From IMG/VR virus record IMGVR_UViG_3300014720_002669: a DNA stretch of 64,000 nt; one strand, given 5' to 3'. Both the position numbers and the translations under genes were made by a program. Positions within the stretch are counted from its first letter, which is position 1, and each line of letters opens with the position of its first letter. This document shows, piece by piece, positions 4,501 through 39,348 of this stretch. The notes beneath the pieces were generated by a model. The model worked only from the letters and a program-made list of their open reading frames with translations, did no database searches and had not been told where the DNA came from. Source of the DNA: a virus.

Positions 4501-6252
4501 GTGGCAATTGTACAAATATCAAGAATCACCGCCCGCAAGGGTTTGACTGAAGACCTACCACAGCCCTTGGCTGGCGCTGAGCTGGGCTGGGCAACTGACG
4601 AACGCAGACTTTTCATCGGCAATGGTGAACTTGCAGATGGCGCACCCATTGTGGGCAACACTGAAGTATTGACTGAATTCTCAGACATTTTGAGTTTTGC
4701 CGGACAGTACATCTATCAAGGGCAAGCCGCTGGATACACTGTGCAGACCGGAGCCACCACCGGATCGCCAGTGTCGCAAAGTATTCAAAGTAGACTAGAC
4801 AGCTATGCCATAGTCACAGATTTTGGTGCCACGGGCGACGGACAAACAGATGACACTGCTGCTATAAATCGAGCGTTGTTTCAACTGTATTGTGTACAAA
4901 ACAATACTCAGGTTCGACGAAGCTTGTTTTTTCCTGCAGGACGTTACATTATAACTGACACCATTTTGGTTCCTGCCTTTGCCAAACTGTATGGTGAAGG
5001 CGGCGCCAGTTCAATCATTGATTTCAATGTGCAGAATTGGGCGGCCAACACTGCTTATGTGGCAGGAGTGCTGGTGTACGATGTTGCAAATGCTGTGTAT
5101 AGACGCAGCTTGGTACCAGTGCCGGCCACTGGTATTTTGACCACTGACCCAGTGTACTGGGCTACAGAATCATTGCCCAGTTATATGATGCGCACAGCTG
5201 ACAGCTTGCAACAAACAGGGGTCAACATTGCTACCAATGGTGCCACACCACCAGAAAACATACAGGTCAGCGAAATGGGAATCACCAGCAATCAAGTGTT
5301 GAATGGTATCCTGATTGAAACTGCCAGCAATTGTGATTTTGACAGTGTCAACATAACAGGACCATTGACCACCAATGAGCTCAATGCAGCTGGCGACGAC
5401 ACTGCTGCCATACGCTGGGCCAGCACAGTCAGTTTGACCTGCGAGCATGTGAATTGGAACAATTGTGTGTTTTCTGGATTCACGTTTGGTACCAAAACAG
5501 ATCAACAGATCAAGGGTGTGGTATTTGCCAACTGTGTGTTTGACACACTGTATCAAGGTGTGGTCTTGGGAGACACTGTAGTGGTATCAGGTGGTGCCAC
5601 CGGAGTCAAGCTCATGCACTGCATATTTGACAACATCTACGTGGAAGGATTCATATGCAACAATGTGAGCTTGAATGCATCTGCCTACAATATTTTTTAT
5701 GATGTAGGCAACCATTTCAATGGAGCTTCACTGCCTGCCAGTCCGGTTATTTTGATCAATGCTGACAACAACGTCAGCATTGGCGACATGTTTCAACGAA
5801 ACACCGCACAATCAATAGTATATCCCAGAATCAAACTGTTCAATTCTACCACCAGCACTGTGCCTGCCAGTATCGGCGTAGACAGTGCTGTGAGATCACA
5901 ACTGGGCAGTTATGTTAGAAACACTGGTGTGCAAGCCACCTTGGCTCAAAGCGCCAGCAATGCTACCTTGTTTACTATAAGTTCAACATACATCAAAGCC
6001 TTCAAAATGGATTACACAATCACTCGAGACACATCAGTGCGCACTGGTACATTGACTGTGGCCAATGATGCTGATGATTCAGCAGGAGATGGACTGAGTT
6101 ACAGTGACGATTTTGTACAAAACTCAGATCCAGATGTAACATTGGCAGTGACAGATGTGGGTACTAACATGACTGTGACGTACTCAACCGACAGTGTACG
6201 TCCTGCTGGATTGATATACTATAGTGTGGTCTACCTTGGACTCAGCAGCTGA
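4501..6252 (+). CDS. tailspike/tail fibre with N-terminal trimerisation region and pectate-lyase-like beta-helix
   Basis: LAGAELGWATDERRLFIGNG N-terminus; VTDFGATGDGQTDDTAAINRA..FFPAGRY; repeated NCVF turns. Confidence 0.8.
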   Translation: MAIVQISRITARKGLTEDLPQPLAGAELGWATDERRLFIGNGELADGAPIVGNTEVLTEFSDILSFAGQYIYQGQAAGYTVQTGATTGSPVSQSIQSRLDSYAIVTDFGATGDGQTDDTAAINRALFQLYCVQNNTQVRRSLFFPAGRYIITDTILVPAFAKLYGEGGASSIIDFNVQNWAANTAYVAGVLVYDVANAVYRRSLVPVPATGILTTDPVYWATESLPSYMMRTADSLQQTGVNIATNGATPPENIQVSEMGITSNQVLNGILIETASNCDFDSVNITGPLTTNELNAAGDDTAAIRWASTVSLTCEHVNWNNCVFSGFTFGTKTDQQIKGVVFANCVFDTLYQGVVLGDTVVVSGGATGVKLMHCIFDNIYVEGFICNNVSLNASAYNIFYDVGNHFNGASLPASPVILINADNNVSIGDMFQRNTAQSIVYPRIKLFNSTTSTVPASIGVDSAVRSQLGSYVRNTGVQATLAQSASNATLFTISSTYIKAFKMDYTITRDTSVRTGTLTVANDADDSAGDGLSYSDDFVQNSDPDVTLAVTDVGTNMTVTYSTDSVRPAGLIYYSVVYLGLSS

Positions 6253-26089: not shown

Positions 26090-26401
26090 ATGTCACAATC
26101 AGACACACGCACTCGTATTAAACCTAATCTTGCAGTGAAAGAACCCACACTGTTCAAGGTAATTTACATAAACGATAACAAGACTACTATGGAATTTGTA
26201 GTAGACAGTCTGGTTGAATATTTTGATTACACAGCAGATTCGGCTGAACAAATCACCATAGATATTCACGAAGCAGGACAGGCCACTGTGGCTGTGTTGC
26301 CTTTTGAAATTGCCGAACAAAAAGGCATTGAAGTCACGCTGTCTGCTAGATCGTTAAATTATCCATTGCAGATAAAACTTGAACCAGAAACAGTGGTCTA
26401 A
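26090..26401 (+). CDS. clpS: ClpS N-degron adaptor
   Basis: KVIYINDNKTTMEFVV..IHEAG..EIAEQK..YPL. Confidence 0.9.
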   Translation: MSQSDTRTRIKPNLAVKEPTLFKVIYINDNKTTMEFVVDSLVEYFDYTADSAEQITIDIHEAGQATVAVLPFEIAEQKGIEVTLSARSLNYPLQIKLEPETVV

Positions 26402-27186
26402 ACATCCACAGTGATGCGCAAGGGATGGTACACATACTGTGACCAACGCGATCTTCCTCGACCACGACAGTTGTTGACAAAACGCACACCTTGATGTATT
26501 TGATCCACACTTCCGTGATAGTGTCCAAAACACCAGGTATGTATTTTTTTTTGTATGTCAGCACTCAAGGCCTGCATCATGAAACTGTTGCCCATGGTAT
26601 TGAATTTTAGATGTCCTGTTAGATCAATGTCATGCGATATCAAATCACCGCAAGGCACAGTGTGTGTGACACAAACAATTTTTTTCACATCATCATGATA
26701 CTGAAGTCGTTTGACACTGGAAACCATGTAAGTGGCATCTGTAGTGGCCATGCGTCCCACAGCCTTGGCACAGGTAGGGGTAGTAGTGGTTTTATTTTGA
26801 AACCACTCGCTGACTGCTTGCTGATCAATGCTAGGGTCAAGATCGTAAGTCCACCAACCATTGGTACCTAAAATGGCCACATCGTCGATGACCACCACAT
26901 TGTCTTGCAAGAATATCACATTGGGCAGGCGTTTTATTTTTTTAATTAGTTCTCTGTAACTGTGGCCGAGATTTTCATACTGATGCACATGCTCATCGTT
27001 GCCATCAACATAAAACACTGCCTGATAACACTGTCCAAGATGGCGCAGGGTATCAATTACTGTTTTTGTATCACGTGCAACATCACCAGCCACAACACAG
27101 TAGGCACTGGTGGGTTTTTGAGTCCAATCAAATTGTGGCCAGGTATCAATATGCAAGTCAGAAATTAAGTCAAATGTAAATGCCAT
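26398..27186 (-). CDS. calcineurin-like metallophosphoesterase
   Basis: SDLH, AGD, GNDEH, THTVP, FGHYH. Confidence 0.88.
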   Translation of the reverse strand: MAFTFDLISDLHIDTWPQFDWTQKPTSAYCVVAGDVARDTKTVIDTLRHLGQCYQAVFYVDGNDEHVHQYENLGHSYRELIKKIKRLPNVIFLQDNVVVIDDVAILGTNGWWTYDLDPSIDQQAVSEWFQNKTTTTPTCAKAVGRMATTDATYMVSSVKRLQYHDDVKKIVCVTHTVPCGDLISHDIDLTGHLKFNTMGNSFMMQALSADIQKKIHTWCFGHYHGSVDQIHQGVRFVNNCRGRGRSRWSQYVYHPLRITVDV

Positions 27187-27210: not shown

Positions 27211-27564
27211 ATGAACATTATTTTTGGAGAAGCTTTGGGTGCAATACCTGAAAATTACACAGTGTTGGAATTGGACACTTTTGTAATTCCACCGTCCACT
27301 GAACCAGTGACATCGTACTGTGTGTTGGAAAAATTACCTTTGATTGAATTTACCACGCTGGACGCATACCAAAAGGTGCATGCTGATCTCATGCAGGCCT
27401 ACAGAGATCAAAATTGGGAGTATTGTGTTGAAGCCTTGAGCGGGCTGACTGGACATTGGGGTGGCGAGTTGGATACATTCTATGCAAATCTAGCACAACG
27501 AGTACTTGAATATCAAGCCACTCCACCAGTTCAGCCCTGGACTGGATTCATAATCAAGAGCTGA
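27211..27564 (+). CDS. hypothetical protein resembling the C-terminal helical tail of class III cyclases
   Basis: LELDT..EPV..YRDQNW..PPVQPWTG. Confidence 0.55.
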   Translation: MNIIFGEALGAIPENYTVLELDTFVIPPSTEPVTSYCVLEKLPLIEFTTLDAYQKVHADLMQAYRDQNWEYCVEALSGLTGHWGGELDTFYANLAQRVLEYQATPPVQPWTGFIIKS

Positions 27565-28706
27565 AGTCCAGTTTTCAAAGTCTGAAAATAGTGCTGATCA
27601 GCAGTGAGTGGCGCAAACACTTTGACTGCTGAGCCGCACCAGAGACCTGCTGAAAACTTGGCCACTGATCCAAGCTCTTCAAAGGTGACATCACGACCAA
27701 GGTCAAATGCCATGTAGGTGCTGCCGCCGCGCCAGTTGAGATCTAGATCTTTGGCAATTGATAGCAATTCCTGATGTATGCCTGTTGCACGAGGCAACAA
27801 TTGTTGTATCTGTTGTGTGGCACTCAAGGCAGCCACCACACCCGACATGTTGGGCTGCCAGGTGTGCCCGTGTGCCCAATTTTGAATATCCAACTGTTCA
27901 TACACCTTGCTGTTGCAACATGCTGCACCCAAGGGCGAATAACCGTTGGTCAATGACTTGCCAATGGTGCATATATCTGGTTGTATGCCATAGGGTTCAT
28001 AACCAAACATGGTGCCGTTGGTGCCCCAGCAAAATGCCACATCATCCACTATCATCAACACATCATGTTCTGTGCAAATGTCTCGCAGGCTCTGCCAGTA
28101 TTCTGTGCTGTGTGGCGCCATGGTCATTGCCCAGCTCACTGTTTCCATGATCAAACAACCAATGTCTGGATTCTCTTTCAAGGCTTTCCGCACCCGAGTC
28201 AATGTGAGTTTTTCTTGCCCGTATTGTTGGTATTGATACTGCCAGTCTGGACTGGGAACCAGCACTGCTCGATTGAGATAACTGTATTGTCCGCGTAGAT
28301 GTTTGGCCAGCATGGTGGTTCCATGATAGCTGCCGGCAAAGCTGAGTATCTTGTGTTTGTTGAGTCCACAAGTTTGCCAGTAAGTGTCGTTCATGGCCAT
28401 GGCAGCTTCCACAGCATCTGACCCACTCACAGCCCAGGTCAATGCTGACCAATTGCCCAGTTCACAAATCCATTGTACCAACTTGCTGTTGTCCACAGAT
28501 GTTTCGCCGGTGTTGCCACGTACAAAGTTTACTGGATTGTTGGCCACAGCATTGACAATTTCTGGATTGTTGTAGCCCAAAATATATGCCATGTTGCCGC
28601 ACTGTATGTCAAGATACTGGTTATCATTGGCATAAGTTACCCAGGAACCCTGGGTGCTGGTTACGATTTTTTCCTGTTCGCCAGGGCTGAATGCTTTTAG
28701 TTCCAT
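27531..28706 (-). CDS. class III PLP-dependent aminotransferase
   Basis: SGSDAVEAAM, SYHGTT, IVDDV, IGKSLTNGYSPLG, HGHTW. Confidence 0.9.
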   Translation of the reverse strand: MELKAFSPGEQEKIVTSTQGSWVTYANDNQYLDIQCGNMAYILGYNNPEIVNAVANNPVNFVRGNTGETSVDNSKLVQWICELGNWSALTWAVSGSDAVEAAMAMNDTYWQTCGLNKHKILSFAGSYHGTTMLAKHLRGQYSYLNRAVLVPSPDWQYQYQQYGQEKLTLTRVRKALKENPDIGCLIMETVSWAMTMAPHSTEYWQSLRDICTEHDVLMIVDDVAFCWGTNGTMFGYEPYGIQPDICTIGKSLTNGYSPLGAACCNSKVYEQLDIQNWAHGHTWQPNMSGVVAALSATQQIQQLLPRATGIHQELLSIAKDLDLNWRGGSTYMAFDLGRDVTFEELGSVAKFSAGLWCGSAVKVFAPLTADQHYFQTLKTGLQLLIMNPVQG

Positions 28707-28736: not shown

Positions 28737-29033
28737 TTAAATTTCAAGACTGCTGCTGGTTTTTTCTTCGCCCGCTCCCAACACACAGGCAATTTTACTA
28801 TCATACTCAATCATGGTCCATGATCGTGTTTCCTTATTTGCCAACAACGTAATGTGTGTGTTGTGAACAGTTTTGCCCACCCAAACTGGAGATTCTTTGT
28901 GATTGTTTTTAAAATAATTCATCACATGCTGTGCATCTGAACACTTCATCTGTTTGGTTAACTCCATAATTTCTTGGGCGTCGGCTATAGGGCTTAATAA
29001 GCAGAATAGGAACGCCATTGCTATCTTACGCAT
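28737..29033 (-). CDS. secreted hypothetical protein
   Basis: Signal peptide; two Cys; AAGGAG RBS. Confidence 0.75.
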   Translation of the reverse strand: MRKIAMAFLFCLLSPIADAQEIMELTKQMKCSDAQHVMNYFKNNHKESPVWVGKTVHNTHITLLANKETRSWTMIEYDSKIACVLGAGEEKTSSSLEI

Positions 29034-29060: not shown

Positions 29061-29396
29061 TTAGGGCGCAAATGTATCACTCATAATATATACAGTCACA
29101 CCGACCCGTTGCCGTTCGTTAAAGATATCTCGCCAAGCCGGCATTTTGCGGAACCCATTGGTGACGCGGTCGTAGACAAAATCCGGTTTATAACTGGAAG
29201 ATTTGAGTTTGGGTGCCTTGCCAGGATAAGCACTGTTGCCGTGACAGTGGCGACACTGACTATCCCATACTTGTTGACCCAACGCAATCAAAGAACTATC
29301 CTTCATCACAGCATCTGTAAATGCTGGTGCCGAATCCTGGGCGTTGGCTATGGTGCTGATTAGGCAGAATAGGAACGCCACCGCTGACTTTTGCAT
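29061..29396 (-). CDS. periplasmic monoheme c-type cytochrome
   Basis: Signal peptide ending ANA-Q; CRHCH heme motif; G..KMPAW distal Met; start re-assigned to the ATG at 29396 (AGGAG RBS). Confidence 0.85.
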   Translation of the reverse strand: MQKSAVAFLFCLISTIANAQDSAPAFTDAVMKDSSLIALGQQVWDSQCRHCHGNSAYPGKAPKLKSSSYKPDFVYDRVTNGFRKMPAWRDIFNERQRVGVTVYIMSDTFAP

Positions 29397-29418: not shown

Positions 29419-30420
29419 TTAGCGCACAGGTACCAAATTGTTTCTGAATATTTCCCAGGCTCGACCCCATGACCAACGCTGACTGCCTTGCAGCACAAGA
29501 TGTCTGGGCAAAAACAAAGCATCAGTCACAGCCTGTTTTAGGTCTGTGTTCAAGCAGCCTGTGATGCCTTCATCAACTACATCCACGGGACCTTGCACAG
29601 GAAATGCTGCTACAGGTGTGCCACAGGCCATGGCCTCAATCATCACAATGCCAAAGGTCTCCCACTGACTGGGAAATACAAATACTTCAGCATTGGCATA
29701 GTATTCGGCCAATTCTTCTCCGGTCCGGTATCCAGTGAACAGTACGTCAGGATACTGTTGACGATAAGTTGGCAACATTGGGCCATCACCTACCATGATT
29801 TTCAAAAAGCCCGGAGTTGACATTTCAAAGAATGCTTCCAGATTTTTTTCTTTGCTGACTCTACTCACACACAGCAAGTACCTGCGATTTTTACACTCTA
29901 GTCTATAGCCAGGGTGGAATATGTCTCGATCCACACCTCTAGTCCAGGAAATGATATCACCATCAAATCCATGTGACCGGAGTTCTTGTACCATAGAATC
30001 TGTGGTGGTCAAGACCCGGCCTGAATGTTTGTGAAACCAACGCACTAGAGGCCAAGTAAGACTCTCAGGTATACCAAACAGTTTTCTAAGTCCTTCTGGA
30101 AACTTAGTATGATAAGCAGTGTTGTAGCGATAATGGTGTTTGTCAAGATATTGTCTAACACGCAAACCAATAGGACCCTCTGTGGCGATGTGGATATGAT
30201 CCGGACGGATCTCCTCAAGTATCGCGCCCACCTTCCGGGGAAAGGCAATCTTGACTTCGTTGTAGCCAGGGCAATCAACATAGCGGAACCGCCGGGGATC
30301 AAGATATACAACACGATAGTTGTCCCGAATCGCCATCGCCTCAATATTTTTGTAAGTTGTGACCACGCCATTGATCTGATCCGGTAAGTTGTCTGTGACT
30401 ATTAAGATTGTTTTTGACAT
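29419..30420 (-). CDS. agt: GT4 glycosyltransferase, Agt-like (glucosyl/glucuronosyl-diacylglycerol synthase)
   Basis: VTD...QINGVV, HIATEGPIG, YHTKFPE, VRWFH, WTRGVD..F.P, SRVSKEKN, ETFGIVMIEAMACG. Confidence 0.8.
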   Translation of the reverse strand: MSKTILIVTDNLPDQINGVVTTYKNIEAMAIRDNYRVVYLDPRRFRYVDCPGYNEVKIAFPRKVGAILEEIRPDHIHIATEGPIGLRVRQYLDKHHYRYNTAYHTKFPEGLRKLFGIPESLTWPLVRWFHKHSGRVLTTTDSMVQELRSHGFDGDIISWTRGVDRDIFHPGYRLECKNRRYLLCVSRVSKEKNLEAFFEMSTPGFLKIMVGDGPMLPTYRQQYPDVLFTGYRTGEELAEYYANAEVFVFPSQWETFGIVMIEAMACGTPVAAFPVQGPVDVVDEGITGCLNTDLKQAVTDALFLPRHLVLQGSQRWSWGRAWEIFRNNLVPVR

Positions 30421-30575
30421 TGCCCCGTTACCTTGAAACTTTTAAACTTCAAATCATATCGCATGGTCGCCAACACCTGTTCGCAACTGAGTTGATTTGG
30501 GAAAACTAATTCTATTCTTCCGGGTTGATCTTGCGGATTCGTTGTGTGTACTGCTATCAATATCATCAACCACAT
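30402..30575 (-). CDS. 57-aa small protein (not in ORF track)
   Basis: GGAG RBS; MWLMILIAVHTTNPQDQPGRIELVFPNQLSCEQV...GQCQKQS; overlaps both neighbours. Confidence 0.6.
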   Translation of the reverse strand: MWLMILIAVHTTNPQDQPGRIELVFPNQLSCEQVLATMRYDLKFKSFKVTGQCQKQS

Positions 30576-31326
30576 TGTCGTTCTCCCTGGTCCAGGTTAC
30601 AATTTCCCAAGATCCGTTGTGATGTTCTACTAGTGCTGTGCATGACTCAACCCAGTCACCGTCATTCATGTACATTATGCCATCTATTTCTTTAATTTCT
30701 GCATGATGTATGTGTCCACAGATAACTCCATCAAAGCCACGTTTCCGGCAGTAGTCAACAAGATTACGTTCAAAGTGAAAAATAAAGTCTACTGCTTTTT
30801 TGACCCGGTGTTTAAGGAACAGGCTAAGGCTAAAGTACCCAAAACCAAAACGATGACGAATCCAATTAATCCTAGTATTGAGTCCAAGAATGAAATCATA
30901 TGCTTTGTCTCCCAACATTGCCAACCATGGCGCCAGTCTAGTGATGCCATCAAATAAATCGCCATGAACCACAAGATAATGCCGATTGTCAACACCAATG
31001 TGCTCAACTTGATTTACAACTTCGATTAAGCCTAAGCCAATGCCATATTGCATAAACGGTCTCAAAAACTCGTCGTGATTACCAGCCACATATACAACCC
31101 TAGTACCGCGTTTGCTATGACCCAACACACGACGAATGACGTTGGTGTGACTTTGTTTCCATCGCCACTTGTTTTGTTTGATTTTCCAGGCATCAATTAT
31201 GTCTCCTACCAAGTAAAGAGTTTCGCAGGTGTTGTGTTTGAGGAAGTTGTTGAGTTTGTCAGCCTGGCAGTCTTTAGTGCCAAGGTGTACATCGCTGATA
31301 AAAATTGAGCGATAGGTTTTTTGCAT
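30454..31326 (-). CDS. plcP: PlcP-like phospholipase C (LpxH-family metallophosphoesterase)
   Basis: FISDVHLG, LVGDIID.W, GNHDE (His rather than the LpxH Arg), HGDLFD, GD.AYD, GVICGHIH, GDWVESCTA. Confidence 0.82.
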   Translation of the reverse strand: MQKTYRSIFISDVHLGTKDCQADKLNNFLKHNTCETLYLVGDIIDAWKIKQNKWRWKQSHTNVIRRVLGHSKRGTRVVYVAGNHDEFLRPFMQYGIGLGLIEVVNQVEHIGVDNRHYLVVHGDLFDGITRLAPWLAMLGDKAYDFILGLNTRINWIRHRFGFGYFSLSLFLKHRVKKAVDFIFHFERNLVDYCRKRGFDGVICGHIHHAEIKEIDGIMYMNDGDWVESCTALVEHHNGSWEIVTWTRENDNVVDDIDSSTHNESARSTRKNRISFPKSTQLRTGVGDHAI

Positions 31327-31330
31327 CTAG

Positions 31331-31365
31331 TATTTACAGCCAGATGTGTTACAATAGCATTACAG
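31331..31365 (-). promoter_or_regulatory. Pho box plus TAAATA element upstream of plcP
   Basis: Minus strand CTGTAAT-GCTA-TTGTAAC, 11 nt, TAAATA, 4 nt, ATG. Confidence 0.72.
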
Positions 31366-31674
31366 TTTGTCTTGCCTAGATGCCTGTAGTTCTTGACGTA
31401 AAATTTTGTAATCTTCCAGCGTGGCAATTGATGGCACAGTAGACTTCATGTATGCAGGGGGCACAGATTGCCATTCTGATTCACTCACACCGGCCACAAT
31501 CATGGCAGTGTATTCGTGTCCATCACTGGTATGCAGTTGCACTCGTTCAAATCCTTGTGGAGTCTTGGCTGCGTTCATACAGGCTTGTGCCAAGGCTCTG
31601 AGAGCTGGGGGGTCGGCTATGATGTGTAAATCTTGTCGGGGTTCACTGTGTGGGTATATGTGTAGTCTAGACAT
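31360..31674 (-). CDS. hypothetical protein
   Basis: Coupled to the dnaE-like stop codon. Confidence 0.7.
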   Translation of the reverse strand: MSRLHIYPHSEPRQDLHIIADPPALRALAQACMNAAKTPQGFERVQLHTSDGHEYTAMIVAGVSESEWQSVPPAYMKSTVPSIATLEDYKILRQELQASRQDKL

Positions 31675-33350
31675 TATGTTATGTGCTCGATTTCTTTCAA
31701 TTTCATGCGCTTGCTTTTGTACACTTTAACACATTCACTGCTGTTTGTATAGTCCAAACGGCCTTTGCCCCACAAGATTGGTTGATCAGCAAAGGACATG
31801 GCGTGTGGAACTATCACATCTAGATAACGGCCGTTGCCAGTGCCCAAGGTAGCAAAGGTTATGTAGTCTTTGGCTCCGCTTTTGAACACACGGTAGTTGG
31901 CCACCAGTCCCAGAAATTCCACTTCGCCGGGTCGTCTTATTTCAGTGCAAGCAGGAATAAAATTACTGCTACTCCAACGACCAGTTCGTGCCAATTCAGC
32001 ACATTCGCCGCCTTGCATGGGCGCAGGCACAGCTCCGGCCAATTTGGCTTCTTGATAATATACCCAACTGCTGTAACTGCCTTCGCAGTGTTTCAAACAG
32101 GCTCGCCAGAACGCCTCAGGATTGTGTGCCTTTTGATAGGCCAAGGCCCAGATCAATCTTCCTAGATTGGTAGCATGTGCTCGACACAGTCCAAAATGAC
32201 TGAGTTCGCGCAGTGACGCCAACACAGTATCACGCTTGGGGTGATCACCAATCAACTGCATAAACTCATAGATCTTTTCTTCATTGCGTTTGGCAAACGC
32301 TCTGCGCCACATGTCAGCGGTGTACATGTCACAGTCCAAGATGTCGGCAATCATGGTGATGGCATCATCTTCAAACACCACTGTGTCTTGTTGTATAGTG
32401 TCGGCACTCCAGTCTTGAAATGCACTGGCTTTACGTCGACCCTGTGTGGCCACTGGACGGATCAGTGCAGTGGCCAGGGTACAGTCGCTCCGGCTCTTGA
32501 CTTTGAGAGCTCTAAACAGTCTTTTCATGGCTGGACTTTCGCCCTGAGTCACACCCAACACATCACCACGACCCAGCAGGTCACTGGTTTTTTCATCATG
32601 CTCGGGATAGTCTGTGAGTGGGCGTTGATCAATCTCCCACAGTTGACTCAGTCCACGATTGGCCAGGATATCTATTTTGAAGTGTTCAAGATCTTCAGTT
32701 TCGTATTTGTCCAACAGGATTTGATTGTTGCCATTGATCAGGCTTGGAGGCACAGCACGATCAAAAATCAAAATGCCACCACAGTGTTTTGATATACAGC
32801 GTTTTTTGCCCATGAGCTTGGCTGTGACTCGTTTGGCCTCCTCTATTTCTTCTGGAGGCAACACTTGGCTGAATTCAAATCCACGTTTGAGTGTGCCTTT
32901 GGCTCCCAGCCGTTTGGCTGCTTCACGTTTGGCTGACTTTTCTTTGTACATCACATAGTTGCTGACTCTGGCACTTTGCCCCGGCCAGCGACGAAATATG
33001 CGATTCATCACAGTGGCCTGTTGCCAGTGTGGGAAATCCAGATCAATATCAGGAAGGTCGTCACGTTTGGGATTCATAAAACGTGCTATGGGGATGTTTT
33101 CTGCCACAGGATCTAGATCACTGATGCCCATGAGCCAGCACACCAGACTTGAGCCTGCTGATCCTCGGGTGATGTGTGGTATGTCTGTGGTGAGATCCAG
33201 TATTTCTCGCACACGCAAGAAGTGTCGAGAAAAGTTTTGATCTCTAATTAGTTCTAGTTCTTCTGCCAGTCTGTGTGCGTATTTGGGATCTTGTGGTAAT
33301 TCTCTTCTAAATTGTTTTACTAGTTGTTCAAGTTCTTTATATCTATCCAT
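31674..33350 (-). CDS. compact family-C DNA polymerase (DnaE-like, PHP domain absent)
   Basis: RGSAGSSLV, PDIDLDF, SKHCGG, KIDIL, C-terminal OB-like region. Confidence 0.88.
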   Translation of the reverse strand: MDRYKELEQLVKQFRRELPQDPKYAHRLAEELELIRDQNFSRHFLRVREILDLTTDIPHITRGSAGSSLVCWLMGISDLDPVAENIPIARFMNPKRDDLPDIDLDFPHWQQATVMNRIFRRWPGQSARVSNYVMYKEKSAKREAAKRLGAKGTLKRGFEFSQVLPPEEIEEAKRVTAKLMGKKRCISKHCGGILIFDRAVPPSLINGNNQILLDKYETEDLEHFKIDILANRGLSQLWEIDQRPLTDYPEHDEKTSDLLGRGDVLGVTQGESPAMKRLFRALKVKSRSDCTLATALIRPVATQGRRKASAFQDWSADTIQQDTVVFEDDAITMIADILDCDMYTADMWRRAFAKRNEEKIYEFMQLIGDHPKRDTVLASLRELSHFGLCRAHATNLGRLIWALAYQKAHNPEAFWRACLKHCEGSYSSWVYYQEAKLAGAVPAPMQGGECAELARTGRWSSSNFIPACTEIRRPGEVEFLGLVANYRVFKSGAKDYITFATLGTGNGRYLDVIVPHAMSFADQPILWGKGRLDYTNSSECVKVYKSKRMKLKEIEHIT

Positions 33351-33433
33351 TAAATGCTGCCTTGGTTGTTTTAGGAAAATATTTATGGTGTGATATTTTA
33401 TCATTCAAAGATTTTGGCACCGCTAAATATTCT

Positions 33434-34075
33434 GTGAAATCCACCATAGCCCTATTCATACATGATCCCAAGTGCTCTGTACAGAGTGGCAACGGAATTA
33501 TGCAGGCCCTGGGCAACAACTACAATTTTAAACTATTCAGCAAAAACGAAGTGGAAGATGTGTTCCTTGATGGGGTAGACATGGTTGCAGTACCAGGCGG
33601 ATTTGGTGATGCCGACAGTTATGATACTTTGTTTAAAAACAACTCAAAATCTGTGCGGCAATTCGTGCGGCAAGGCGGAAGATACTTGGGCATCTGTATG
33701 GGCGCATACTGGGCAGGCAAGCATTATCTCAACATCCTGGATTCAGTGGATGCTGTGCAATATATTCGTCGTCCAGGCACAGACACACGTAGACCGCATG
33801 CCAAATACATGCCAGTGACCTGGCGCGGCCAACCTAACAACATGTACTGGTACGATGGATGTGCCTTGGTGGGTGATCGCACCCGATTTGAAACTGTGGC
33901 AACTTACAGCAATGGTGATGCCATGGCCATCATACAGAACAGAATTGGCCTGATAGGATGTCATCCTGAAGCTGAACAGTTTTGGTACGACGATTACTCA
34001 TGGATGCGCCGGCACTGGTCTGGTGGGCATCATCGTTTACTTCAAGAGTTTGCGGACCAACTCATGCAGTCGTAA
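33434..34075 (+). CDS. BPL_N / class I glutamine-amidotransferase-like protein
   Basis: VPGG, YLGICMGAY, GCHPE; probable GTG start after TAAATA. Confidence 0.8.
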   Translation: MKSTIALFIHDPKCSVQSGNGIMQALGNNYNFKLFSKNEVEDVFLDGVDMVAVPGGFGDADSYDTLFKNNSKSVRQFVRQGGRYLGICMGAYWAGKHYLNILDSVDAVQYIRRPGTDTRRPHAKYMPVTWRGQPNNMYWYDGCALVGDRTRFETVATYSNGDAMAIIQNRIGLIGCHPEAEQFWYDDYSWMRRHWSGGHHRLLQEFADQLMQS

Positions 34076-34149
34076 AAAAAGGCCCTGTTAGGCCTTTAGT
34101 GCTGGTTACAAGTTCCAGCGCCGCTCTATCTTTGCGGCTGGTTTTTGTA

Positions 34150-35532
34150 TTAGAAGTTGATTTGTGTGCGAATGCTAACAACATCTTCCCTGCTGGTGGT
34201 GCCCATGTCAGTGGTATCCAATGGAGCAATTGCTGAGCCAAACTTGGTATAGGCATAGTTGGCCATGATTCTGGCATTGTTGTTGAGAATCCAGTTCACA
34301 CCATATGTCACTGTCTGAGCAGAATTGGCATTCTGTGTACGGTTGCCTGTCACAGCACCGTCAACACTGTTGCTGCCTGCTGCTGTGTATTCAGAAACAC
34401 GAACTCCCACTTGCCATGCACCTGTGCCATTGCCTACAACACCGCCATAGTCTTTCATAAACACTGATGATGGGGTGATACCGCCAAAGGTGCCACCTTT
34501 ATAACTTTTAGCAAAGTCTTCACCTGTGATATTGTACATGACTTCCACATACTTGGCCTGCACTCGTACGTCTTGTGTGGCCACACAAGCAGAGGTCACA
34601 CAACTGGCAGCACCTGTGACATAGTTATAGGTGTTGGCTGATGCTGAGTATTTGCTGTCAAAGTTTTCTGCTTGAATTTTGAATGGACCATGAGCCAAGG
34701 CCAATTCAATACCGTTCATGGTACGATTCACACTGGCAGCATTGTTGGCAGTGGCTCCATAGGCTGCTGTGTCAACTTTGTCACCGCCGATTTGAGCACG
34801 ATACACATTGCTCATGCCACGTGCTTCTGAGCGTAGTGCTACAATTGTACCACGTGTGGTTGTGCTGGGCGCATCAACTGTGTTGCCCGAAGTTGTTGGC
34901 ACCATCTGTGCCCGTCCACCAGTCTGTGCCACACCTACATGTAATACAGTGTTGGGATTGGATGCCAGTTGACCAAAATTCACAGCCACACGTGCCGCAT
35001 ACTGTGCGCCCAGAGTGTTGTCACTGGAACTTTCTGCGAAGTCACCTTGAAATGCTGATAATCCATAAACAAATCCTGCACTGGGTTCACCGTGCAGCAT
35101 CACACCCAGACGTTTGCCTGGAACCAATTGATTGCCATATGAACGTTCCATGAAGCCGATGTTGTTTGAACTGGTGAGTTCTTCCAGGCTAAACGGCTGC
35201 TTGAATCGACCTGTACGGAATTGTGCTGATTGATTGAAGCCATAGTTCACAAAGGCAGTGTCAATGAAGTTGGTGTTGCTGCCTACAGCATTGCCCACCA
35301 ACTCATAGTTGATCTGCTTGTTGATACTGCCATTGATACCAATTCTGGCTCTACGCAGTTCAAAGTTGTCGCCCACGCTGGCGCTGTCACGGTCTGTGGA
35401 TTTGGTCAGGTCCGAATCAAATGTTCGTGTGTCAAAATGCACACGGCCTGTGACCTTGGAATCCACCTGTGCCATTGCTGGCGCTGTCAGGGCCACAAAT
35501 GCAGCGGCCAAGATTAATTTAGTAAATTTCAT
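34150..35532 (-). CDS. phosphate-selective porin, OprO/OprP family
   Basis: Signal peptide; FELRRARIG arginine ladder; GRFKQPFSLEELTSSN; GVNW; C-terminal Phe. Confidence 0.9.
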   Translation of the reverse strand: MKFTKLILAAAFVALTAPAMAQVDSKVTGRVHFDTRTFDSDLTKSTDRDSASVGDNFELRRARIGINGSINKQINYELVGNAVGSNTNFIDTAFVNYGFNQSAQFRTGRFKQPFSLEELTSSNNIGFMERSYGNQLVPGKRLGVMLHGEPSAGFVYGLSAFQGDFAESSSDNTLGAQYAARVAVNFGQLASNPNTVLHVGVAQTGGRAQMVPTTSGNTVDAPSTTTRGTIVALRSEARGMSNVYRAQIGGDKVDTAAYGATANNAASVNRTMNGIELALAHGPFKIQAENFDSKYSASANTYNYVTGAASCVTSACVATQDVRVQAKYVEVMYNITGEDFAKSYKGGTFGGITPSSVFMKDYGGVVGNGTGAWQVGVRVSEYTAAGSNSVDGAVTGNRTQNANSAQTVTYGVNWILNNNARIMANYAYTKFGSAIAPLDTTDMGTTSREDVVSIRTQINF

Positions 35533-35596
35533 ATTTCTCCTTTAGATTTACTTTTGCGATATAACATAATATGTAGTGCAGTCAACACCACAGTGA

Positions 35597-36616
35597 TTAT
35601 TTCTTGATCTGGGACCAAACACGGTCACGAATCTGTTGAGTCAAGGTGTCTGGCAGTGGTACGTAATCCAAATCCAATGCTGCCTTTCGTCCATTTTTAA
35701 ATGCCCAATCAAAGAATTTCAATACCTCTGCACTTTGGCGAAGGTCGGTGGGATCCTTGTACATGAGAATAAAACTGGCAGTGGTCACTGGCCATACACT
35801 GTCGCCTTTTTGATCCACAATGCTCAGGGCCATGCCTGGTACTGAGAACCAATCTGCCCCAGCAGCCGCGGCAGCAAAGGTGGTGTCATCTGGTGATACC
35901 CAGCGACCATTGCGGTTCTGCATCTGCATGAACACCAATCGGTTTTTCTTTACATAGGCATATTCAACATAGCCAATGCTACCTCGGATTCGTGCCACGT
36001 TGGCTGCTACACCTTCATTGCCTTTACCGCCCACAGATGTTGCGGCAGGCCACTTCACAGCAGCACCACGACCCACACGTTCCAACCAAGCAGGACTCAC
36101 TGTGCTGAGATAATCGGTCCAGTTGAAGGTGGTGCCGGAACCATCAGCACGATGTACCACAGTGATGACTTGATCGGGCAAGGCTTTGCCGGGATTGAGA
36201 GCCATAAGCCGAGCATCGTTCCATTTGGAGATTTCGCCTAGAAAAATCTCTGCCAGCACTGGTCCAGTGACTCGGAGTTCACCTGGTCGGAATCCTGGTA
36301 AATTCACAGTAGGTACAGTACCGCCTATGACGGCAGGAAATTGCACCAGGCCTTCTTTTTCCAATTCTGCACCTGACATGGGTGCATCACTGGCGCCAAA
36401 TGTCACTGTCTTGGCCTTGATCTGTCGCAGGCCACCTGAACTGCCAATGCTTTGATAGTTTAACTGAGTGTCGTGTTTTTCACTGTAGATTTCGGCCCAC
36501 TTGCTGTAAATGGGAAAGGGGAAAGTTGCGCCTGCCCCAGTGATGATGTTTTGAGCATTTGCTGATGGACTCAACAAATACAGTGTTGCGGCCAACAAGG
36601 CCAAGATTTTTTTCAT
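35597..36616 (-). CDS. pstS: phosphate ABC transporter substrate-binding protein
   Basis: TGAGATFPFPIY, YQSIGSSGG, FGASD, HRADGSGTT, GKGNEGV, IGYVE. Confidence 0.97.
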   Translation of the reverse strand: MKKILALLAATLYLLSPSANAQNIITGAGATFPFPIYSKWAEIYSEKHDTQLNYQSIGSSGGLRQIKAKTVTFGASDAPMSGAELEKEGLVQFPAVIGGTVPTVNLPGFRPGELRVTGPVLAEIFLGEISKWNDARLMALNPGKALPDQVITVVHRADGSGTTFNWTDYLSTVSPAWLERVGRGAAVKWPAATSVGGKGNEGVAANVARIRGSIGYVEYAYVKKNRLVFMQMQNRNGRWVSPDDTTFAAAAAGADWFSVPGMALSIVDQKGDSVWPVTTASFILMYKDPTDLRQSAEVLKFFDWAFKNGRKAALDLDYVPLPDTLTQQIRDRVWSQIKK

Positions 36617-36653
36617 GTGTTTTCCTTTGTGAATATGTGCGATTGCACATGAA

Positions 36654-36688
36654 TATTTAAACACAAAGATGTTACAGTAATGTTACAG
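36654..36688 (-). promoter_or_regulatory. Pho box plus TAAATA element upstream of pstS
   Basis: Minus strand CTGTAAC-ATTA-CTGTAAC (11-bp period), 11 nt, TAAATA. Confidence 0.82.
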
Positions 36689-36835
36689 TGGCTGGGTTTT
36701 TTTGTTCTTTTTGTCTGGACCAAGAGCTTTGGCTTCTTCCAGCCGGCGCTGTGTGGCAGGGGTTGTTTGGGGAGGACGATACACGTGGTGTTTCTGGGAT
36801 TCGTGTCGTCGCGGTGCTCGTTTAAACCAACTCAT
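36683..36835 (-). CDS. 50-aa basic small protein (not in ORF track)
   Basis: AAGGAA RBS; MSWFKRAPRRHESQK... Confidence 0.5.
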   Translation of the reverse strand: MSWFKRAPRRHESQKHHVYRPPQTTPATQRRLEEAKALGPDKKNKKTQPL

Positions 36836-36894
36836 AGACAGTTCCTTTGCAGGTCTAAATACTTATTGTGTGTGTTTGAAATATAAACTCCAGT

Positions 36895-38106
36895 TTAATT
36901 TTGTTGTAGCAGTTGGCCAATTACAACACGATGTTGACCTGTGCAATGCTGTTGCATAATGACCATGGCTTGATCTAAATTGGTCTGGTATTCTTCTATC
37001 ACTTGATCAAACAGTCCGTTGAAAAATCGTTGTTTGTTGCGTTGGGCAATCTCATGCAATTTTGTGTACAGTGCTTGTTTAGCCGCAGCATCAAGTGCAG
37101 CAATTCTTTTCATCTCTTGGATGATGGCATCTAATCTGGCTGCACCATCAGCAATGGTGTCATAAGTTTCGTCAATCACATTTGCAAACGTTTCAAAACC
37201 GTAGTTTCTCAGGTATTGCAAACTGCCTGGTGTAGCCGCCAACAAGAAAGGTTTGCCACAAGCAATGGGCCTCAGTGTTTTTTCTGTGAGATGCCAACGA
37301 TCATCATCAAACAATGTTTCCAGCACAATTTCAATGCCACAAGCAGCGTAGTCTGCGCCACAGTAATCTGCACTGCTGCCTGAATCAGCAGTGTTGGGCG
37401 GATAAAGTTGTTCCAAATTGTGTAGATGAATTTGGAATTTTTTGTTGGCAAACACATGATCTACATAATGTGTGTCATTATCCACAGCGGCAAATGCAGT
37501 TTGAGTGTGTGATGTAAGATCATGCGTTGCCAGTTGTTGGGCAAAATACAGTCGATATTCTCGTGTGCCGCTCCAGGCTCGGTTGTATACCAAAAATGTT
37601 TTTTGTATTCGGGCAACATTATAAGTCAATGCAGGATCATGTTTGGCATATCGAAACCAATCCAACGCAATCATGGCATGACTCCAGATGTATACAGGTA
37701 CAAAATTTGCTTTTACAAAATATTTTAATTGACGACTGTGCAGTTCAGAGTGTACCAACACTGTTAGATCAAACTGATTGCTGCATACCTGTGGTGGTCG
37801 TAGATGCATGCCAGCCACATAATTCAAAACAGAATGCTCAAGCATAAAAAAACTGTCTGATATTTTGGAAAAAAATGACTTTGCATTATTGTATAGTTGC
37901 TCTTTGGTGTAAAATAAAAAATCCAATGGTTCTTGGTCATGAAAAACAACCAATGGATTCTTTTCAAGTTGATATTCTGGGTAGTTGGTCAACTGTGTTA
38001 GGTCTTCCAGTTTTCTTGAGCCATGTGGCAACCAACGATAAATTACTAGATCATGGTTGACACAGTCACACAAATAGTGATATAATCTGTCTAAAGGAAC
38101 ACTCAT
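36895..38106 (-). CDS. hypothetical protein, possibly glycosyltransferase-like
   Basis: HDQEPL, YNRAW, VLETLF..LTEKTLRPIACGKPF, GFETF. Confidence 0.6.
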   Translation of the reverse strand: MSVPLDRLYHYLCDCVNHDLVIYRWLPHGSRKLEDLTQLTNYPEYQLEKNPLVVFHDQEPLDFLFYTKEQLYNNAKSFFSKISDSFFMLEHSVLNYVAGMHLRPPQVCSNQFDLTVLVHSELHSRQLKYFVKANFVPVYIWSHAMIALDWFRYAKHDPALTYNVARIQKTFLVYNRAWSGTREYRLYFAQQLATHDLTSHTQTAFAAVDNDTHYVDHVFANKKFQIHLHNLEQLYPPNTADSGSSADYCGADYAACGIEIVLETLFDDDRWHLTEKTLRPIACGKPFLLAATPGSLQYLRNYGFETFANVIDETYDTIADGAARLDAIIQEMKRIAALDAAAKQALYTKLHEIAQRNKQRFFNGLFDQVIEEYQTNLDQAMVIMQQHCTGQHRVVIGQLLQQN

Positions 38107-39348
38107 ATGAAAAAAATTGGTTTTATTGGGATCGGCAAACTGGGTCTTGATTGTGCAGAAGTCATGGCTGAACGGCATGAAGTGCGCGGTTACGATATTT
38201 ACCCACGTGAGAGCGACTCAGTAAAAATCTGTGACATTGACGAGTTGGTGAACGAAAGCGAATGGATTTTTATTGCTGTGCCTACACCACATGCTGAAGG
38301 TTATGATGGATCAGTGCCCAGCAGCCACATGGAGCCACGAGACTTTGGACATGCGGCTGTGATTGATGCAATCAAGAACGTGAACCGGTATGCAACCACA
38401 CCCAAGAAGGTTGTGTTGATCTCAACAGTGTTGCCCGGTACCACACGCCGACACTTTTATCCATTGCTGGATTGCAAGCATCAATTCCTGTACAACCCTT
38501 ACTTGATTGCCATGGGCAGTGTAAAGTGGGACATGGTCAATCCTGAAATGGTCATGATTGGCACAGAAGATGGCAACCCCAATGCACTAGCAGGTGAACT
38601 GATTGACCTGTACAAAACCATCATGGTCAACAATCCACGCTATGAAATTGGCACCTGGGACGAATGCGAAGCCATCAAGATCTTCTACAACACCTTCATC
38701 AGTGCAAAAGTTGGCCTAGTAAACATGATTCAAGACTTTGCCCTACGCATTGGCAACATCAATGTGGACGTGGTGACAGATGCACTGGCACGTAGCACCA
38801 TGCGTATCATGGGACCCAAATACATGACAGCCGGCATGGGCGATGCAGGTGCTTGCCACCCAAGAGACAACATTGCACTGCGTTGGTTGGCCAAAGAATA
38901 CAACATTGGCTATGACTTGTTTGACACAGTGATGCATGCTAGAGAAGTGCAGGCCAAGAACCTGGCCATGTACCTGTTGGACCTGAGTGTGATGAACAAC
39001 AACTTGCCCATTGTGATTCACGGCAAAGCCTACAAGCCTGACGTGGAGTATTGTATTGGCTCATACAGCACCCTGGTGGGACACTACATCGAACAAGAAG
39101 GACGTCAAGTGGTGTATGTTGATCCACTAGCAGATGATCCTACAAATGTTGTGGCCACAGTGGACACACCTGCAATCTTTTTGTGGGCACACAATCGCAA
39201 GATCACGTATGAATACACAGGTGATCAACTGGATACACTGCCCTACTGCGACATCAAGCCTGGTAGTATTATTGTTGATCCATGGCGCAAACTTGCATCA
39301 ACTCCTGAGGTTGAAGTTGTTCACTACGGTAACACCAGATCTCATTAA
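38107..39348 (+). CDS. ugd: UDP-glucose/GDP-mannose dehydrogenase family protein
   Basis: GIGKLG, FIAVPTP, STVLPGT, EAIKIFYNTF, GACHPRD, AYKP. Confidence 0.88.
   Translation: MKKIGFIGIGKLGLDCAEVMAERHEVRGYDIYPRESDSVKICDIDELVNESEWIFIAVPTPHAEGYDGSVPSSHMEPRDFGHAAVIDAIKNVNRYATTPKKVVLISTVLPGTTRRHFYPLLDCKHQFLYNPYLIAMGSVKWDMVNPEMVMIGTEDGNPNALAGELIDLYKTIMVNNPRYEIGTWDECEAIKIFYNTFISAKVGLVNMIQDFALRIGNINVDVVTDALARSTMRIMGPKYMTAGMGDAGACHPRDNIALRWLAKEYNIGYDLFDTVMHAREVQAKNLAMYLLDLSVMNNNLPIVIHGKAYKPDVEYCIGSYSTLVGHYIEQEGRQVVYVDPLADDPTNVVATVDTPAIFLWAHNRKITYEYTGDQLDTLPYCDIKPGSIIVDPWRKLASTPEVEVVHYGNTRSH

Follow-up and report, generated by a model that had tools for sequence, protein, structure and literature searches.

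Within a 64,000-nucleotide stretch of viral DNA (hereafter the window) from the IMG/VR record IMGVR_UViG_3300014720_002669, we describe an island of genes in which plcP, for a predicted phospholipase C, is followed by an agt-like gene for a GT4 glycosyltransferase (the lipid arm), and in which pstS and the gene of an OprP-type porin make up an uptake arm. Taken as a whole, this region is best explained as a phage-borne phosphate-stress island, and we hold that explanation to be probably correct. Because the lipid-swap genes adjoin phosphate-uptake genes behind starvation-type sites, the phage probably draws phosphorus from the membrane of its host. This reading is grounded in the family assignment of the genes, their operon layout, a conserved upstream box, the viral setting, and purifying selection, all of which are observed.

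The phosphoesterase

In the preliminary description of the window, the LpxH-family phosphoesterase had been taken for PlcP, and this identification held up, both by placement in the tree and by an LpxH score of 43 bits where 134 are called for. On these grounds, the protein belongs to the PlcP family and is a paralog rather than an ortholog of LpxH. It carries the motifs SDVHLG, AGNHDE, and NDGDWVESCTA along with the complete metallophosphoesterase set (DxH, GD, GNHD/E, H, GH, and GHxH), while the metal ligands D12, H14, D42, N83, H84, H121, H205, and H207 are invariant in 35 family members, the window protein included. Against the LpxH equivalog NF003743, it scored 43.4 bits (cut-off 134) over the first 120 residues only, and against TIGR01854 35.6 bits (cut-off 190). 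Moreover, LpxH chains in the PDB were recovered at E values of about 1e-4 only, with 17-20% identity. A true LpxH (282-334 bits) is found in each of Burkholderia latens, Pseudomonas pseudonitroreducens, a Cupriavidus, and Chromobacterium haemolyticum, and three of these four bacteria encode a separate paralog that scores 36-54 bits on the LpxH model, which is the range of the phage protein. Azospirillum brasilense has only the low-scoring paralog.

The nearest cellular homologs of the window PlcP are proteins of Pseudomonadota (44-58% identity), with 50-58% identity to those encoded in bacterial plcP-agt operons. In a maximum likelihood tree of 108 sequences (supports from the Shimodaira-Hasegawa-like approximate likelihood ratio test, SH-aLRT), the window protein and 20 phage relatives form a single clade (SH-aLRT 99), which is sister to Pelagibacter phage Mosig and a Pseudomonadota metagenome-assembled genome (MAG) (support 97). 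This whole group is placed inside the bacterial PlcP radiation, including the Pseudomonas and Burkholderia groups, with LpxH as a long-branch outgroup (support 100). The possibility that the MAG sequence sister to Mosig (L091, a 348-kb contig) is a mis-binned phage was considered and rejected; since its neighbours are ordinary bacterial housekeeping genes, it is genuinely bacterial.

In an AlphaFold (AF2) model of the window PlcP (predicted local distance difference test score, pLDDT, of 86), the nearest solved fold is that of the LpxH-lipid X structures, with all 24 top-ranked chains being LpxH, and the modelled protein carries a disordered C-terminal tail of about 45 residues. Here, LpxH as the nearest fold at 17-20% identity fits a lipid-directed paralog without a structure of its own. 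The ratio of nonsynonymous to synonymous substitution rates (dN/dS) of plcP is 0.04-0.11 within the phage lineage. We predict that its product acts on glycerophospholipids as a phospholipase C, with diacylglycerol being released.

The adjoining glycosyltransferase

The GT4 gene follows plcP on the same strand after a gap of 33 nt, and its product shows the motifs HIATEGP, YHTKFPE, and RWFH. That it is the counterpart of the gene beside bacterial plcP was borne out in all five bacterial genomes searched and in 48 of the 80 nearest bacterial plcP loci. In those 48 loci, plcP is immediately followed by a GT4 homolog that is 37-45% identical to the window protein over near full length, and in several more of the 80 the homolog overlaps the plcP stop codon. 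Searches of the five genomes always returned the plcP-adjacent gene as the top match (240-280 bits, 41-46% identity over the full length), with the next best match at 115 bits or less and ordinary GT4s at 53 bits or less.

According to the GTcp paper, the defining marks of the GTcp/Agt clade are a dyad, His104-Asp256, and two motifs, GRVAxEKN and FPSxTDTFG, the latter with Asp in place of the usual GT4 Glu; the clade is less than 25% identical to other GT4 families. Both motifs appear in the GT4 neighbours of bacterial plcP, three of which have the Glu, and a YHT+FP motif is common to these neighbours. The window protein keeps His104 (AYHTKFPE). Among the phage GT4s, 28 have the Glu form and 11 the Asp form; in the GT4 tree, they all lie on one side of a branch with a support of 100 and split into two subclades, Glu and Asp. 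As the window protein lacks the Asp of the FPSxTDTFG signature, we assign it to an Agt-like phage subclade and do not call it a plain Agt member. Within the phage lineage, the dN/dS of the GT4 gene is 0.10-0.24.

The window GT4 most likely works like Agt, that is, as a predicted glycosyl-diacylglycerol synthase. For comparison, the PlcPs validated in S. meliloti and Phaeobacter MED193 share 46-47% identity with PA3219 of P. aeruginosa, while the Agt of MED193 shares 41% with Agt1. The identities of the window proteins (50-58% for PlcP and 41-46% for Agt) are at least as high as those among experimentally validated members, and we counted them for an Agt-like GT4. Because the validated members differ in donor and product, with Agt1 making only monoglucosyldiacylglycerol (MGDG), Agt2 only glucuronosyldiacylglycerol (GADG), and GTcp being broad, the sugar donor of the window GT4 is not to be deduced from its family. 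In E. coli, the agt homolog of SAR11 was shown to produce MGDG as well as GADG (Sebastian et al. 2016, PMC4796936).

Pho-box-like sites

Upstream of pstS and of plcP, we noticed Pho-box-like repeats (Table 1). The one at pstS is made up of two direct repeats, each of 7 bp, that recur with a period of 11 bp, and it is the sole perfect match in the 64 kb to a pattern that was derived from this very site. When up to two mismatches were allowed, only two sites emerged in the 64 kb, those upstream of pstS and plcP, for 0.39 expected; 4 of 100 shuffles reached two. The pstS box is also found upstream of pstS in the related loci L011, L012, and L015-L017. Moreover, a box matching at least 10 of 14 positions within 60 nt occurs in 63% of 59 distinct phage plcP upstream regions, as compared with 1.1% of 60-nt windows drawn at random from these loci. 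The geometry at plcP (box, about 11 nt, TAAATA) is kept among diverged relatives, and the spacer sequences vary. No Pho box was found in the region upstream of the porin gene.

Both 18-bp repeats take up the position expected of a -35 element, and an 18-bp box that replaces the -35 element is the layout of proteobacterial Pho promoters, as in E. coli. In our comparison, boxes of the CTGTCAT type lie upstream of bacterial plcP and Burkholderiales pstS genes, and Pho boxes on bacterial plcP-agt operons have been reported (PMC4796936 and work in P. aeruginosa). Five phage records, of which two are 96-98% complete, yielded no OmpR/PhoB-type regulator, and we infer from this that the reader of the box would be the PhoB of the host. 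In Mosig (L001), for which the host is known, the divergent pstS-plcP intergenic region (5895-5990) has TTAACA repeats with an 11-bp spacing, which may be a Pho box with another half-site.

Viral setting and host

The window belongs to one 103.6-kb IMG/VR record, and since CheckV rates this as 30% complete, the genome is estimated at about 345 kb. Also encoded in the record are ribonucleotide reductase, DNA ligase, DnaK, clamp loaders, and a collagen-like tail fibre. The T4 gp23 major capsid gene and plcP share one contig in the relatives G406, G408, and G409. Of these, G406 is the closest relative of the window, with a PlcP identity of 96% and an identical local gene order, and G409 is a 161-kb record that is 96% complete. 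A protein-level search gave close PlcP relatives on 343 IMG/VR contigs, and others are found in JGI and ENA assemblies of up to 359 kb with phage-like gene content. A nucleotide search of phage records with the plcP and GT4 genes returned no match, the homologs emerging at the protein level only. The G+C content is uniform over the module region. In sum, the viral nature of the contig, for which a check had been proposed earlier, is confirmed by the IMG/VR record, its CheckV rating, and gp23 in G406, and we place the window in a T4-like freshwater (lake) phage of very large size.

The host is probably a betaproteobacterium of the Burkholderiales. Within a sample of 401 Pseudomonadota genomes, the phage PstS is 70-71% identical to the PstS of two Burkholderiales genomes and at most 58% identical to that of the rest. 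By their similarity to named loci, the PlcP loci of these two genomes resemble those of Comamonadaceae- and Sphaerotilaceae-type Burkholderiales; the phage porin, used as a query, had no match in either genome. We take the likeness in PstS and PlcP locus as a hint of the donor or host lineage only. In the related locus L005 (4579-5764), a heme oxygenase and a ferredoxin-dependent bilin reductase are encoded near DnaK, and these are cyanophage-style genes, though PstS points to Burkholderiales.

Distribution and variants of the module

A survey of plcP-glycosyltransferase synteny in viral contigs, suggested earlier as a check, showed that the pairing recurs across IMG/VR contigs. Among the 80 related phage loci whose layout we compared, plcP is directly followed by GT4 in about half, and in most of the remainder by a GT2 of 239 residues, which is present in about 40% of related phages (L002:8907-9626 and about 33 other IMG/VR loci). 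This GT2 matches PF00535 and, weakly, the GT21 family, which holds processive glycolipid synthases, and none of the 80 nearest bacterial loci has it beside plcP. It may act as a substitute glycolipid synthase, one that is paired with plcP in phages only.

In many relatives, pstS, porin, plcP, and glycosyltransferase genes are contiguous. Where a gap separates plcP from the glycosyltransferase gene, it is filled by a RimK-like ATP-grasp gene or the gene of a glycine-rich protein, and no Ugd gene was found in these gap loci. Both plcP and GT4 are under purifying selection in the phage lineage. The L011 PlcP is 96% identical to that of the window, but the adjacent GT4 only 79%, which suggests recombination within the module.

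Other genes of the island

The genes named in the preliminary description have open reading frames (ORFs) at the positions it gave, and its placing of pstS and an OprO/P porin a few kb away was confirmed by profile matches to both. For pstS, the more likely start is the ATG at 36616, which is preceded by an AAGGAAA ribosome site. PstS scored 408.9 bits with NF008171 (cut-off 339), thus reaching the score of the PstS equivalog, 369 bits with TIGR00975, and 219 bits with phrog_5385. The porin matched PF07396 with 133 bits (cut-off 20.9) over profile positions 2-370, has a signal peptide ending at AMA|Q, and terminates in ...QINF, with a C-terminal Phe. By these marks, it is a full-length Porin_O_P barrel with export signals, for which anion selectivity is predicted.

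Table 1. Genes and Pho-box-like sites of the phosphate island and its surroundings, by position in the window.
Feature	Position	Strand	Description
Second metallophosphoesterase	26398-27186	minus	unrelated to PlcP in detail; phrog_1649 94 bits; TIGR03729 43 bits, below cut-off
Class-III aminotransferase-family enzyme	27531-28706	minus	pyridoxal phosphate (PLP)-dependent; PF00202 176 bits
Small secreted protein	28737-29033	minus	signal peptide nearly identical to that of the cytochrome c; many relatives also have it downstream of agt
Small secreted monohaem cytochrome c	29061-29395	minus	PF13442 51 bits; ribosome-binding site, signal peptide, CRHCH haem motif; directly after agt
agt-like GT4 glycosyltransferase	29419-30420	minus	333 residues; both GT4 Pfam halves
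plcP	30454-31326	minus	290 residues; calcineurin-type metallophosphoesterase
Pho-box-like repeat 2	31348-31365	minus	CTGTAAT-N4-TTGTAAC, CTGTAATGCTATTGTAAC; 11 nt before TAAATA; 21 nt before plcP ATG
DnaE-type polymerase fragment	31674-33404	minus	576 residues; PF07733 130 bits and finger domain; between porin and plcP
OprO/OprP-family outer-membrane porin precursor	34150-35532	minus	PF07396 Porin_O_P
pstS	35597-36616	minus	periplasmic phosphate-binding protein; mechanical ORF 35597-36664 starts at GTG 36664
Pho-box-like repeat 1	36671-36688	minus	CTGTAAC-N4-CTGTAAC, CTGTAACATTACTGTAAC; then TTAAATA after 10 nt; about 55 nt upstream of pstS ATG
427-residue protein upstream of pstS	36895-38178	minus	beside pstS also in L011, L012, and L015-L017
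Nucleotide-sugar dehydrogenase-like gene ("Ugd")	38107-39348	plus	TIGR03026 128 bits (cut-off 189.8); phrog_9148 293 bits

The DnaE-type fragment has the catalytic core and finger only, with neither PHP nor C-terminal parts, and thereby resembles a single portion of a split polymerase; it lies outside the module. It separates porin and plcP only in the window, L012, and L017, and in L064 it is found downstream of the GT2, while in other relatives the porin gene directly adjoins plcP. A GATase/BPL_N-like gene is located between the porin and polymerase-fragment genes on the plus strand (33362-34075), and L005 has a comparable gene some 2.7 kb beyond agt. The 427-residue protein had no family match in profile searches. 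Between its gene and pstS, there is a possible minus-strand ORF of about 49 very basic residues (36686-36834), the stop codon of which falls inside the first Pho-box repeat.

Downstream of the GT4 gene, the secreted cytochrome c is odd cargo for a phage. The class-III PLP gene follows agt in L011, L014, L015, L017, and L035, and the second metallophosphoesterase keeps its position in close relatives. The latter protein, for which a PDB search gave no solved relative, is possibly a phosphatase or diesterase, and we could speculate that it and the class-III PLP enzyme process freed phospho-head groups. A more specific role for the PLP enzyme, as a phosphoethanolamine phospho-lyase, was considered and found unsupported, the PDB search having given only generic transaminases.

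The Ugd-like gene had been counted as part of the system, and this could not be upheld. It is on the other strand, lacks a Pho box, and has its own consensus sigma70-like promoter (TTGACA-18-TATAAT, 38057-38086). The protein has a Rossmann GxGxxG and a GACHPRD motif of the catalytic-Cys type; its C-terminal domain was unmatched in the profile search, and its score stays below the cut-off of the nucleotide-sugar dehydrogenase family. Uncharacterised genes and a UvdE nuclease lie downstream. Moreover, a search of five other PlcP phage records did not find the gene in three of them, two near-complete ones included. It is present only in the closest relatives and was not found in G408, in G410, or in the near-complete GT2 phages G409 and G411. 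The Ugd-like enzyme may or may not feed the GT4, and it is no demonstrable part of the module.

Proposed mechanism and alternative explanations

As we picture it, in a phosphate-starved host the active host PhoB would turn on the pstS and plcP promoters of the phage. PstS and the porin would raise phosphate capture, while PlcP would strip the phospho-head groups from host phosphatidylethanolamine, phosphatidylglycerol, or phosphatidylcholine to leave diacylglycerol. The GT4 would then glycosylate this diacylglycerol to a phosphorus-free glycolipid, such that the membrane stays intact. The freed head groups, once dephosphorylated, would join the imported phosphate in feeding phage nucleotide synthesis, for which the need would be about 0.7 million phosphates per genome copy (two per bp at the estimated 345 kb). 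In this scheme, we infer what the enzymes do, which sugar donor is used, that PhoB binds, and that the phage benefits.

Several points weigh against the scheme. The activities of the phage PlcP and glycosyltransferase are predictions, and no dedicated phosphatase was recognised for the released head groups. Our comparison rests on homologs from plcP-agt operons of related species and not on SMc00171, MED193_17359, PB7211_983, PA3219, and Atu2297 themselves, and the trees come from a quick search without bootstraps. In the window GT4, SRVSKEKN stands for GRVAxEKN, with both Gly and Ala changed to Ser (the Arg and Lys probed by mutation in GTcp are retained), and FPSQWETFG has Glu, as in the canonical EX7E, for the signature Asp of FPSxTDTFG. 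The half-site is TGTAAC, as against TGTCAT before bacterial plcP and pstS. Furthermore, the consensus of T4 late promoters likewise has TAAATA as its core, and this double role makes the promoter class ambiguous. Finally, only 4 nt separate TAAATA from the ATG at plcP, implying that the transcript has almost no leader.

A more far-reaching version of the scheme, which we regard as tentative and rather doubtful, has large aquatic phages bearing such an island in a self-contained, PhoB-wired form. It would combine uptake, by PstS and the porin, with conversion of the host phospholipid pool to phosphate for the phage, would use GT4 and GT2 interchangeably for glycolipid repair, and might have the PLP enzyme and second phosphoesterase process the head groups.

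Among the rival explanations, remodelling of the envelope for protection (altered surface properties that could mean a block to superinfection, less grazing, or stability until lysis), with the phosphorus gain being incidental, strikes us as unlikely. Three papers (PMC9938194, PMC9457565, PMC9804370) do link lipid renovation to phage attachment and predator-prey trade-offs, and the alternation of GT4 and GT2 downstream of plcP suggests that the glycolipid product matters. However, the tight linkage to pstS and a phosphate porin and the box in common with pstS suggest a phosphate-stress logic, and the PlcP-Agt products are inner-membrane lipids and no obvious receptors. Less likely again is that diacylglycerol or glycolipid serves a phage-specific need apart from phosphorus economy, such as an internal membrane or compartment, the timing of lysis, or host signalling. 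Such a need would suit enzymes that are conserved and selected, as well as a gene string that includes the secreted cytochrome c and other secreted proteins, but it leaves the Pho-box-like site and the linkage to pstS and porin unexplained, and no genes of a membrane-containing virion were seen.

We find it very improbable that the phosphoesterase is the lipid A enzyme LpxH and that the glycosyltransferase modifies lipopolysaccharide (LPS). This is what the JGI and GenBank labels would have, virus surveys place lpxH under LPS biosynthesis, and LpxH is the nearest solved fold; the window protein, however, falls well short of the LpxH threshold over its N-terminal 120 residues, groups with the non-LpxH paralog, and has no lipid A genes nearby. 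The least credible reading is that of misassembled host DNA or a recently captured, functionless passenger. The bacterial origin of the genes and a pstS 70% identical to that of Burkholderiales speak for it, but independent viral contigs from many samples show this layout by the hundreds, the phage copies fall into single clades, dN/dS stays far below 1, and G+C is uniform. In fact, with an IMG/VR record assessed by CheckV, phage genes around the module, gp23 in relatives, and the 343 contigs, a misassembly of host DNA is untenable. The phosphate-stress island remains the reading that we prefer.

Significance and relation to known systems

To our knowledge, the phage phosphate genes known so far concern uptake or sensing (pstS, phoA, and phoH). 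A phage PlcP-Agt pair, if true, would be a new route by which host membrane phosphorus becomes a viral resource while the cell is kept intact. With 343 IMG/VR contigs, the module could bear on the lipid-based proxies by which phosphorus stress is read in lakes and oceans, and if the island is indeed self-contained, infection would be a direct driver of the shift from phospholipids to glycolipids in phosphorus-limited waters. For enzymology, it would provide PlcP and Agt variants that have diverged in nature, among them the Asp/Glu switch and the alternative GT2.

The preliminary description knew of no described phage plcP-agt pair. This stands as far as the literature is concerned, for our full-text searches, which covered PlcP in phages or viruses and lipid remodelling among auxiliary metabolic genes, brought up no account of a PlcP encoded by a virus. 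It needs qualifying for PlcP itself, as homologs are already present in the isolated phages Mosig, where the gene is beside pstS, and S-SRM01, in both cases annotated as LpxH and with no adjacent glycosyltransferase. The announcement of the Mosig genome does not discuss this homolog, and a survey of phage phosphorus-acquisition genes makes no mention of phospholipases, lipids, or porins. Virus surveys may thus be counting PlcP genes as the LPS gene lpxH, a probable systematic mis-annotation that the present assignment would correct. What LpxH and the phage PlcP have in common is the metallophosphoesterase fold with a helical insertion; they differ in that the phage protein is far below the family cut-off, sits on another branch of the tree, and lacks a lipid A context.

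Among other large phages of lakes, the freshwater amoC-phages carry a host-like oprP, and the preprint that describes them names no lipid genes (bioRxiv 10.64898/2026.06.18.733297). The idea that the present phage is one of these could not be judged by AmoC, which had no match in the record and four relatives, but none in the control genomes either, so that the result is uninformative.

The closest counterparts are the bacterial plcP-agt operons, namely those with the 'type 2' layout (PMC4796936), PA3219-PA3218, and BCAL2364-2365 of B. cenocepacia; in Burkholderia species, a plcP-agt-dagK operon is conserved. The order of plcP and then GT4 is the same as in the phage, the proteins are of the same families (the phage ones being 50-58% identical for PlcP and 41-46% for GT4), and a Pho-box-like site lies upstream in both. 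In contrast, the phage module is encoded by a virus, has no dagK, shows a Glu and an altered first UDP motif in its GT4, has a TGTAAC half-site followed by TAAATA, and adds to PlcP the disordered tail of about 45 residues. On the viral side, cyanophage pstS is under the control of the host PhoBR. The Pho genes of cyanophages and pelagiphages (pstS, phoA, and phoH) are likewise phosphate-stress genes borne by phages, to which the present module adds a lipid arm and a porin.

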